This document shows positions 45,215 through 46,297 of a stretch of DNA of 64,000 bases, in pieces. The notes below the pieces were generated by a model. That model did no database searches and had not been told where the DNA came from. It saw only the letters and a program-made list of their open reading frames with translations. The translations under genes and the position numbers were made by a program. The first letter of the stretch is position 1. Each line of letters begins with the position of its first letter. Source of the DNA: Promethearchaeati archaeon (GTDB lineage Archaea; Asgardarchaeota; Heimdallarchaeia; Heimdallarchaeales; Heimdallarchaeaceae); NCBI GenBank assembly GCA_013166775.1, contig JABLTJ010000001.1, forward strand, positions 32,001-96,000, written 5' to 3'.

Positions 45215-46297
45215 ATGGGTGGAATTAGAAGACAAAGAAAGAAAATCATAACTCCTGGTCATCCATATGATCAAGCTCGATTAGAAAGAGAACTCCCCTT
45301 AGTAGGAGAATATGGTCTTAGAAATAAACGCGAATTATGGAAAGCTAGAACCGTTCTCTCAAAAGCTAGACAACAAGCTCGTGGTCTTTTAGCTCTTGAT
45401 CCTGATATCAGAAGCCAAAGAGAAAGAGAACTTCTTTCACGATTATCAAGATTTGGAATGCTTTCAGAAAGTGCTGATTTGGATTCAGTTCTTGCGTTAG
45501 ATGTAAAAACAGTACTTGATCGAAGACTACAAACTATTGTTTTCAGAATAGGTTTAGCTAGTACACCTTATCAAGCTAGACAATTTATTTCACATAGACA
45601 TATTGCAATAGACAAAGGAGTAGTTACATCACCAAGTAGGTTGATAACAGTAAAAGAAGAAAGCGGAATTGCTTATGCTCCAAGATCCCCACTAAATAAT
45701 CCACAACATCCATCTAGACCACAAGCTCCTCCAGTAGTTGAGGAACCTGAAAAAACTGAGAAACCCAGGCCCAAAGCTAAACCTGCTCCTAAGGAAGAGC
45801 AACGTAAACCTGCTCCTAAGGAAGAGCAACGTAAACCTGCTCCTAAGGAAGAGCAACGTAAACCTGCTCCTAAGGAAGAGCAACCTAGGGTAATCGAAAA
45901 GAAAGCAGAGGTTAAACCTAAGGAAGTAGAAAAGAAAGCAGAGGTTAAACCTAAGGAAGTAGAAAAGAAAGCAGAGGTTAAACCTAAGGAAGAGCAACCT
46001 AAGCCCAAACCTACACCTACACCTGAGGTGAAAGAAGCACCAAAAGAGAAAAAACCTCCTGCTAAACCTATCGAGGAGAAATCTAAAGTTGCAACTATAG
46101 CTGATCTTTCTCAGATTGAAGGTATAGGTGCAAAGACAGCAATGCTTTTACAAGATCATGGTTTCAAAACCGCACAAAAAATCGCTGGATCATCAGTTGA
46201 TGATATTACTAAAGTTCCAGGAATTGGCCCAGCTACCGCTGAAAAGATGATCAAGAACGCAAAGGCTCTTGTCAAAAAAGCAGGGGAAGGTAAGTAG
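45215..46297 (+). CDS. rps4: 30S ribosomal protein uS4 fused to a repeat linker and a C-terminal HhH domain
   Basis: [26 protein letters not shown]-terminal IEGIG..TA and VPGIGPATA. Confidence 0.95.
45779..45886 (+). repeat. 27-nt in-frame tandem repeat x4 (KPAPKEEQR)
   Basis: aaacctgctcctaaggaagagcaacgt at 45779, 45806, 45833, 45860. Confidence 0.97.
45896..45994 (+). repeat. 33-nt in-frame tandem repeat x3 ([11 protein letters not shown])
   Basis: gaaaagaaagcagaggttaaacctaaggaagta at 45896, 45929, 45962. Confidence 0.97.

Follow-up and report, generated by a model that had tools for sequence, protein, structure and literature searches.

A helix-hairpin-helix domain on a repeat-built spacer in the only ribosomal protein uS4 of a Heimdallarchaeaceae genus

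The only ribosomal protein uS4 of one genus of the Heimdallarchaeaceae (genus g1) is a genuine fusion protein, in which the archaeal uS4 core continues through a long low-complexity spacer into a C-terminal tandem helix-hairpin-helix, (HhH)2, domain. The gene was analysed in a window of 64,000 nt from one genome of this genus (G000), where it occupies a single open frame and its predicted product has 360 aa and a mass of 40.2 kDa, divided into the core (aa 1-172), the spacer (aa 173-293) and the (HhH)2 domain (aa 294-360). Few known proteins are as conserved as those of the ribosome, and a folded domain of nucleic-acid-binding type on a reach of 50-160 residues stands out. From its sequence and predicted fold, the domain is tentatively read as a sequence-independent tether to duplex nucleic acid, most probably DNA, that may hold ribosomes at the nucleoid. 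The positions of the gene, its parts and the related features are collected in Table 1.

Table 1. Location of the fused uS4 gene, its parts and neighbours, and of related features in the same genome and in relatives. Positions given without a locus name are those of the window.
Feature	Location	Strand	Basis or remark
uS13 gene, directly upstream, same operon	44732..45205	+	Pfam Ribosomal_S13, E 9.7e-32
Whole uS4-spacer-(HhH)2 gene	45215..46297	+	360 codons and stop; single open frame
Archaeal uS4 core, aa 1-172	45215..45730	+	NCBIfam PRK04051, TIGR01018; Pfam S4 domain
Low-complexity spacer, aa 173-293	45731..46093	+	composition; presumed disordered
27-nt tandem repeat, 4.0 copies, 100% identical	45778..45884	+	Tandem Repeats Finder
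33-nt tandem repeat, 3.4 copies, 94% identical	45882..45992	+	Tandem Repeats Finder
C-terminal (HhH)2 domain, aa 294-360	46094..46294	+	Pfam HHH_5; two G-I-G hairpins
uS11 gene, downstream	46306..46752	+	Pfam Ribosomal_S11, E 6.8e-43
uS3, 337 aa	26659-27672	+	C-terminal tail of ~140 aa
uL24	29155-29766	+	long acidic (D/E-rich) tail, no HhH
eL32	32384-32923	+	long acidic (D/E-rich) tail
HhH-spacer-eL33, P0121, 316 aa	G000 contig C97, L022:7013-7960	-	HHH_5 and fold search
Double-HhH protein P0122, 536 aa	L022:14142-15749	-	two C-terminal HhH domains
225-aa protein, helical N-terminal part and C-terminal HhH	G000 contig C75, L023:2087-2764	-	HhH match
uS4 of G042 (g10, sister genus), 383-aa frame	L035:1177-2325	+	no HhH cap
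uS11 of G001	L036:3644-4339	+	N-terminal extension of ~100 aa

The uS4 core is assigned by two NCBIfam models, PRK04051 over aa 1-171 (E 1.2e-62, 210.9 bits, cut-off 138) and TIGR01018 (E 3.8e-57, 192.8 bits, cut-off 82.25), and the Pfam S4 RNA-binding domain PF01479 falls at aa 103-148 of the fused protein (E 8e-13). When the uS4 core was used as the query against the whole genome (3.85 Mb, 89% complete), a single match was returned, and this is the fused gene. The archaeal gene order uS13-uS4-uS11 is kept at the locus, with a gap of 8 nt between the uS4 stop codon (46295-46297) and the ATG of uS11. After uS11 the usual archaeal continuation, uS11-rpoD-eL18-uL13-uS9, is absent; an AT-rich gap (46753-47005 of the window) stands there instead, and beyond it lies a convergent gene encoding a 302-aa protein that is kinase-like by eye. 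The rpoD gene of this genome is on another contig, C52 (L021), and is unlinked from the uS4 operon. The break between uS11 and rpoD is common to relatives with and without the HhH fusion (L034, L036). The idea that the HhH domain is a relic of the alpha-CTD from an adjacent rpoD was rejected, since rpoD is on C52 and the order at the locus is uS4-HhH followed by uS11; the unlinking of the operon from rpoD in relatives that lack the fusion also counters it. Two opposite-strand ORFs, at 45673-46008 and 45692-45997, were set aside as by-products of the repeats.

The same architecture recurs well beyond the window. A search of 5.8 billion proteins, with length limits of 198-630 aa, found fused proteins of full length in 36 separate 90% clusters, one from each, all with the same three parts. 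They originate from NCBI, JGI, ENA and Logan assemblies, and most of the named ones are labelled Heimdallarchaeaceae or Heimdallarchaeota. The whole fusion is also in one open frame in nine further genomes of the genus (G019, G022, G008, G001, G024, G003, G021, G015 and G007). In most of the remaining genus genomes the uS4 contig breaks off within the spacer, and another contig opens with an HhH piece of matching type, as is expected where repeats break short-read assemblies. In G001, which has 20 contigs, the uS13-uS4-uS11 order is the same, with uS11 directly after the HhH domain. Three marine-sediment DNA runs contain the stretch; in the cover listed, up to 45995, their Logan contigs stop within the repeats (for example at 45807 and 45834) without spanning the linker, breaks that are uninformative on whether the join is correct and on how many copies there are. 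From the single RNA run (X7) came just one contig, 102 nt long and 90-95% alike on repeat sequence, which is no evidence of expression.

The recurrence across many independent assemblies allows an assembly artefact, in which the repeats would have led uS4 to be wrongly joined to an unrelated HhH gene, to be dismissed as most improbable. The linker does contain perfect repeats, the contigs of many relatives break inside it, and the public contigs of the source sample leave it unbridged. However, the in-frame fusion appears with different linkers in at least nine other species genomes and in the 36 protein clusters, drawn from several data sources; uS11 follows 8 nt after the HhH stop in the window and also comes directly after the HhH domain in G001, and no second uS4 was found in the genome.

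The spacer, of about 121 aa, consists almost entirely of P, K, E, A and V (~20% P, 26% K, 22% E) and has a net charge of +10. Its 27-nt repeat encodes KPAPKEEQ[R/P] four times and its 33-nt repeat encodes an 11-aa unit starting with I or V three times, the exact copy number resting on a short-read assembly and the public contigs of the source study breaking inside the repeats. Among the 36 fused orthologues the spacer ranges from 52 to 164 aa and from -7 to +22 in net charge. Its repeat units differ among sub-lineages, and close relatives differ by whole units, P0002 and P0003 by one of 11 aa. The spacer changes by the gain and loss of short tandem repeats, and is constrained in composition, not in sequence or length.

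The C-terminal end is matched by Pfam HHH_5 (PF14520) over aa 297-350 (E 8e-15, 55.5 bits, cut-off 27), and an AlphaFold2 model of the domain, built from 23 sequences, has five helices (pLDDT 74). In a Foldseek search of the PDB with this model, RadA N-terminal domains rank first, with 1XU4 superposing at an rmsd of 0.7 A over 57 residues and 35% identity, and the next matches are Rad51 N-terminal domains and NusA AR1/AR2, with a TM by target of ~0.8. Sequence searches with the domain match PolX, Topo V, ComEA, RadA, UvrC, RuvA and NusA, and RadA is the top NCBIfam match of the isolated domain (E 2e-9). What uS4 shares with RadA/Rad51 is only the small N-terminal (HhH)2 domain: the recombinase model TIGR02236 is matched at positions 1-58 of its 311, at 33-37 bits against a cut-off of 361, and the RecA-type ATPase core is not present in the fused uS4. 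The model of the NusA C-terminal acidic repeat, TIGR01954, scores 22.3 bits with the whole protein and 26.7 with the isolated domain, below its cut-off of 48.15, and none of the 15 Pfam families that match the fused uS4 at E <= 0.1 is the RNAP alpha-CTD (PF03118). The domain is basic in the window's uS4 (net charge +3, pI 9.4) and has a mean net charge of +1.4 over the 36 orthologues. Alignment positions G16, G18, P48 and G49 are invariant, and G51 is present in at least 90% of the rows. As modelled, this is a canonical (HhH)2 domain of the RadA/Rad51 N-terminal type with both G-h-G hairpins kept.

All 24 species-representative genomes of genus g1 have a long low-complexity tail on uS4, and at least 21 of them have the HhH part. 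Over the 36 fused orthologues the uS4 core is 172-173 aa long with a mean identity of 79%, and the HhH end is 65-71 aa long (65-67 in all but one) with a mean identity of 60% and no internal indels. Pairwise Nei-Gojobori dN/dS among six genomes is 0.10-0.18 for the uS4 core and 0.04-0.45 for the HhH domain, which is therefore under purifying selection. These results bear out the architecture given in a preliminary description of this DNA, a uS4 core, a P/K/E repeat linker and an HhH domain in one frame: NCBIfam, Tandem Repeats Finder and Pfam recover all three parts, the proposed 27-nt x4 and 33-nt x3 repeats appear as 4.0 and 3.4 copies, the tether put at ~125 aa measures ~121 aa, and uS11 does start right after the uS4 stop. 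That description had also named a misjoin, or an HhH domain conserved in no relative, as what would speak against the fusion, and both are contradicted by its recurrence in independent assemblies and across the genus.

Outside the genus the picture is different. In the family's four other genera, no HhH domain was found on uS4. In g13 the two closed single-contig genomes, one of them G045, have a uS4 of 214 aa with a short acidic end and no HhH, and G042 of the sister genus g10 has the longer, uncapped frame listed in Table 1, which may be a precursor state or a loss. The C-terminal tail of this G042 uS4 has ~210 aa with PKVE and PKADT repeats. Elsewhere in the order, the uS4 frames of other families measure 184-241 aa and have no HhH beside them. 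Among 251 sampled Asgard genomes from 28 families, the uS4-type HhH subtype (E <= 1e-13) is confined to the window's family, and sampling of 231 other Asgard genomes gave no uS4-HhH fusion. Tails of low complexity at the C-terminus occur widely among Asgard and DPANN uS4 proteins; genus g1 is set apart by the folded HhH cap, not by the tail. Since the sister genera (G045, G042) have HhH-less uS4 tails, the domain is not essential to the ribosome of this clade. The standing of uS4 as a standard phylogenetic marker is also touched by the spacer, as the gene is truncated or split in many Heimdall MAGs because the repeats break short-read assemblies.

A genome-wide HHH_5 search returned repair proteins (two RadA-like proteins, Hel308, Hef, UvrC and LigA) and one further protein, P0121. 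The two RadA-like genes are located away from the uS4 locus. In P0121 an N-terminal (HhH)2 domain is followed by a P/K/A repeat spacer and, at the C-terminus, by a divergent eL33 (L35Ae) domain. The last of these is the sole Ribosomal_L35Ae match in the genome, and a weak one; a profile of 25 orthologues has L35a as its best match in the PDB (E 0.0028), and all 50 top structural matches of its AF2 model (pLDDT 85) are eL33 chains, with P. furiosus 9QF4 chain Bc at TM 0.71/0.77. On the modelled fold, the C-terminal domain of P0121 is eL33. The HhH domains of P0121 and uS4 are ~41% identical. HhH-eL33 is family-wide in the window's family, including the closed g13 genome G045, and is also present in a second family (f4); because of this presence in other genera and a second family, the eL33 fusion is older than that of uS4. 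Most relatives of P0121 bear the annotation hypothetical or 'HhH domain' protein, and HhH-eL33 is routinely left under such labels. The two fusions are alike in joining an (HhH)2 domain and a P/K-rich repeat spacer to a ribosomal protein, but in eL33 the module is N-terminal, on the large subunit and spread over several genera and two families, whereas no uS4 fusion was found outside genus g1.

A third host is uL24, which in four congeneric genomes (G022, G007, G015 and G003; L037-L040) carries a C-terminal HhH domain behind an acidic spacer. The uL24 HhH is 74-83% identical to the uS4 HhH of its own sub-lineage and 60-64% identical to the uL24 HhH of the other, a within-sub-lineage likeness that points to the domain having been copied more than once between uS4 and uL24, or to gene conversion. 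As in uS4, the domain is C-terminal, on a spacer and nearly identical in sequence; the spacer is acidic rather than P/K/E-rich, and this fusion is absent from the window's genome.

A ribosomal protein with an appended HhH domain is a known kind. The closest precedent on record is haloarchaeal eL32 (L32e; PDB 1JJ2 chain X, 1S72 chain Y and 9L94 chain Q; NCBIfam PRK12766), like uS4 an essential ribosomal protein with such an addition. The uS4 HhH matches the N-terminal part of the eL32 PDB chains weakly (E 0.005-0.008), and the isolated domain matches the PRK12766 model at E 1.3e-5. In eL32 the host belongs to the 50S subunit, the HhH is N-terminal, there is no long tandem-repeat spacer and the phylum is another, whereas uS4 belongs to the 30S subunit and has its HhH at the C-terminus. 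The long forms of bacterial bL21 (PRK12278 family) follow the same design idea, with an A/K/P linker and a C-terminal HhH-like domain; the uS4 spacer and HhH together match the NCBIfam bL21 long-form models weakly (E 3.5e-5 and 3e-4), and the two differ in HhH subfamily, host protein and domain of life. New are the uS4 host, the long repeat-built tether and the occurrence on several proteins of one ribosome. A search of a literature collection found no paper on uS4-HhH or eL33-HhH of Asgard archaea or on the eL32 HhH domain, and no functional description of the haloarchaeal eL32 HhH.

Purifying selection on an HhH domain that is fixed on the sole uS4 of the genus, together with the parallels on eL33 and uL24, implies a selected function at the level of the ribosome, seen in no model organism. 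The domain and its spacer plausibly form a generic, flexible nucleic-acid tether. The uS4 core would sit in the 30S subunit, and the spacer, presumably disordered, would give the HhH domain a range of tens of nanometres beyond the ribosome surface; if extended, ~120 spacer residues could span more than the diameter of the ribosome. Like its nearest relatives, the HhH domain at the end would grip the sugar-phosphate backbone of a nucleic-acid duplex whatever its sequence. The target would most likely be chromosomal DNA, so that ribosomal subunits would be held at or close to the nucleoid and to genes undergoing transcription. Because a related module is found on eL33 and a near-copy on uL24, both subunits may carry the device as a general 'ribosome-to-polymer' tether, one that does not belong to the mRNA entry channel. 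The presence of the module on three solvent-exposed proteins of both subunits also makes a large, common target, such as chromosomal DNA or abundant structured RNA, a better fit than one docking site. The electrostatics for a DNA tether are not uniformly favourable, since the net charge of the domain runs from -3 to +5 across the orthologues.

A directly competing ligand is RNA. On this account, which we consider unlikely, the HhH domain would bind structured RNA, such as nascent or incoming mRNA, rRNA during assembly or expansion segments, and the arm would serve as a fly-casting recruiter or an assembly chaperone. In archaeal and eukaryotic ribosome structures, from which its C-terminus can be placed, uS4 lies on the 30S shoulder at the mRNA-entry side, the ribosome is an RNA-rich setting, and the uS3 of the window's genome also has a charged repeat tail of 140 aa. 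However, both sequence and fold place the domain nearest to HhH domains that bind DNA, the classical contact of an (HhH)2 domain is with the backbone of a B-form duplex, and the modules of eL33 and uL24 are far from the mRNA path. Expansion segments would be a candidate target, as Penev et al. 2020 (PMC7594248) report supersized ones in Asgard rRNA.

A protein-protein adaptor that docks RNAP or a transcription factor, and so couples transcription to translation, seems less likely again. The preliminary description had likened the domain to the RadA N-domain, the NusA repeats and the alpha-CTD, and had proposed an arm for coupling or mRNA capture. The first two likenesses are upheld by sequence and fold searches: NusA AR1/AR2 have the same five-helix (HhH)2 fold, rank high among the structural matches and also appear in the sequence searches. 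The alpha-CTD sits at the end of a flexible linker, and both it and the NusA repeats resemble the uS4 HhH in holding such a position on the gene-expression machinery; bacterial S4 associates with RNAP antitermination complexes. Yet the NusA repeats and the alpha-CTD make mainly protein or specific UP-element contacts, and the uS4 domain is basic, not acidic, and keeps both of the G-h-G hairpins that are degenerate in NusA AR. The NusA repeat model stays at 22-27 bits against a cut-off of 48, the alpha-CTD likeness is not borne out by the fold or Pfam matches, rpoD is unlinked from the uS4 operon here, and three host proteins on two subunits are ill-suited to one docking geometry. The arm and its domain type therefore stand from the earlier proposal, and its site-specific part is weakened by the eL33 and uL24 copies, which lie far from the mRNA entry site and argue against a role tied to mRNA entry or RNAP docking, and by the failed NusA and alpha-CTD matches.

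It is improbable that the module is a near-neutral passenger, a promiscuous HhH-spacer cassette spreading over exposed termini of ribosomal proteins with a marginal benefit (solubility or polyanion affinity) and no defined partner. The lack of an HhH on uS4 in sister genera, the copying of the cassette between uS4 and uL24, and the low-complexity tails common in the clade (on uS3, uL24 and eL32 in the window and on uS11 in G001) would all agree with a passenger. Against this, the HhH is kept in at least 21 of the 24 genus genomes, where the long tail is present in every one, it has no internal indels, and its dN/dS is as low as that of the uS4 core.

A tether to chromosomal DNA thus remains the favoured, if tentative, reading of the uS4 HhH. 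Were DNA the ligand, ribosome and genome would be linked in space in a new way in Asgard archaea, a lineage central to how transcription and translation became separated in eukaryotes. A bolder and rather doubtful extension is that long-reach DNA clasps on uS4 and eL33, and in some species also on uL24, would hold both subunits on the chromosome, a built-in arrangement that would need no extra factor to organise translation around the nucleoid, or to couple it to transcription, in archaea closely related to eukaryotes.

Further tails and HhH proteins were observed in these genomes. The uS3 tail in the window has an acidic block followed by five near-identical KPKKAPKKEEEA units, with no folded domain at its end. 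The N-terminal extension of uS11 in G001 is a K/D/E/T stretch with DKKTDAKE units and is absent from the window's uS11. P0122 has an N-terminal domain of ~130 aa and a long spacer with repeated 'LLKPSE...' units, and the second of its HhH domains is 46% identical to the uS4 HhH; a protein search with its N-terminal 135 aa gave no usable match. Its gene lies ~7 kb from the HhH-eL33 gene, and does so in the closed genome G045 too. The HhH protein encoded on contig C75 is conserved at ~228 aa across the genus.
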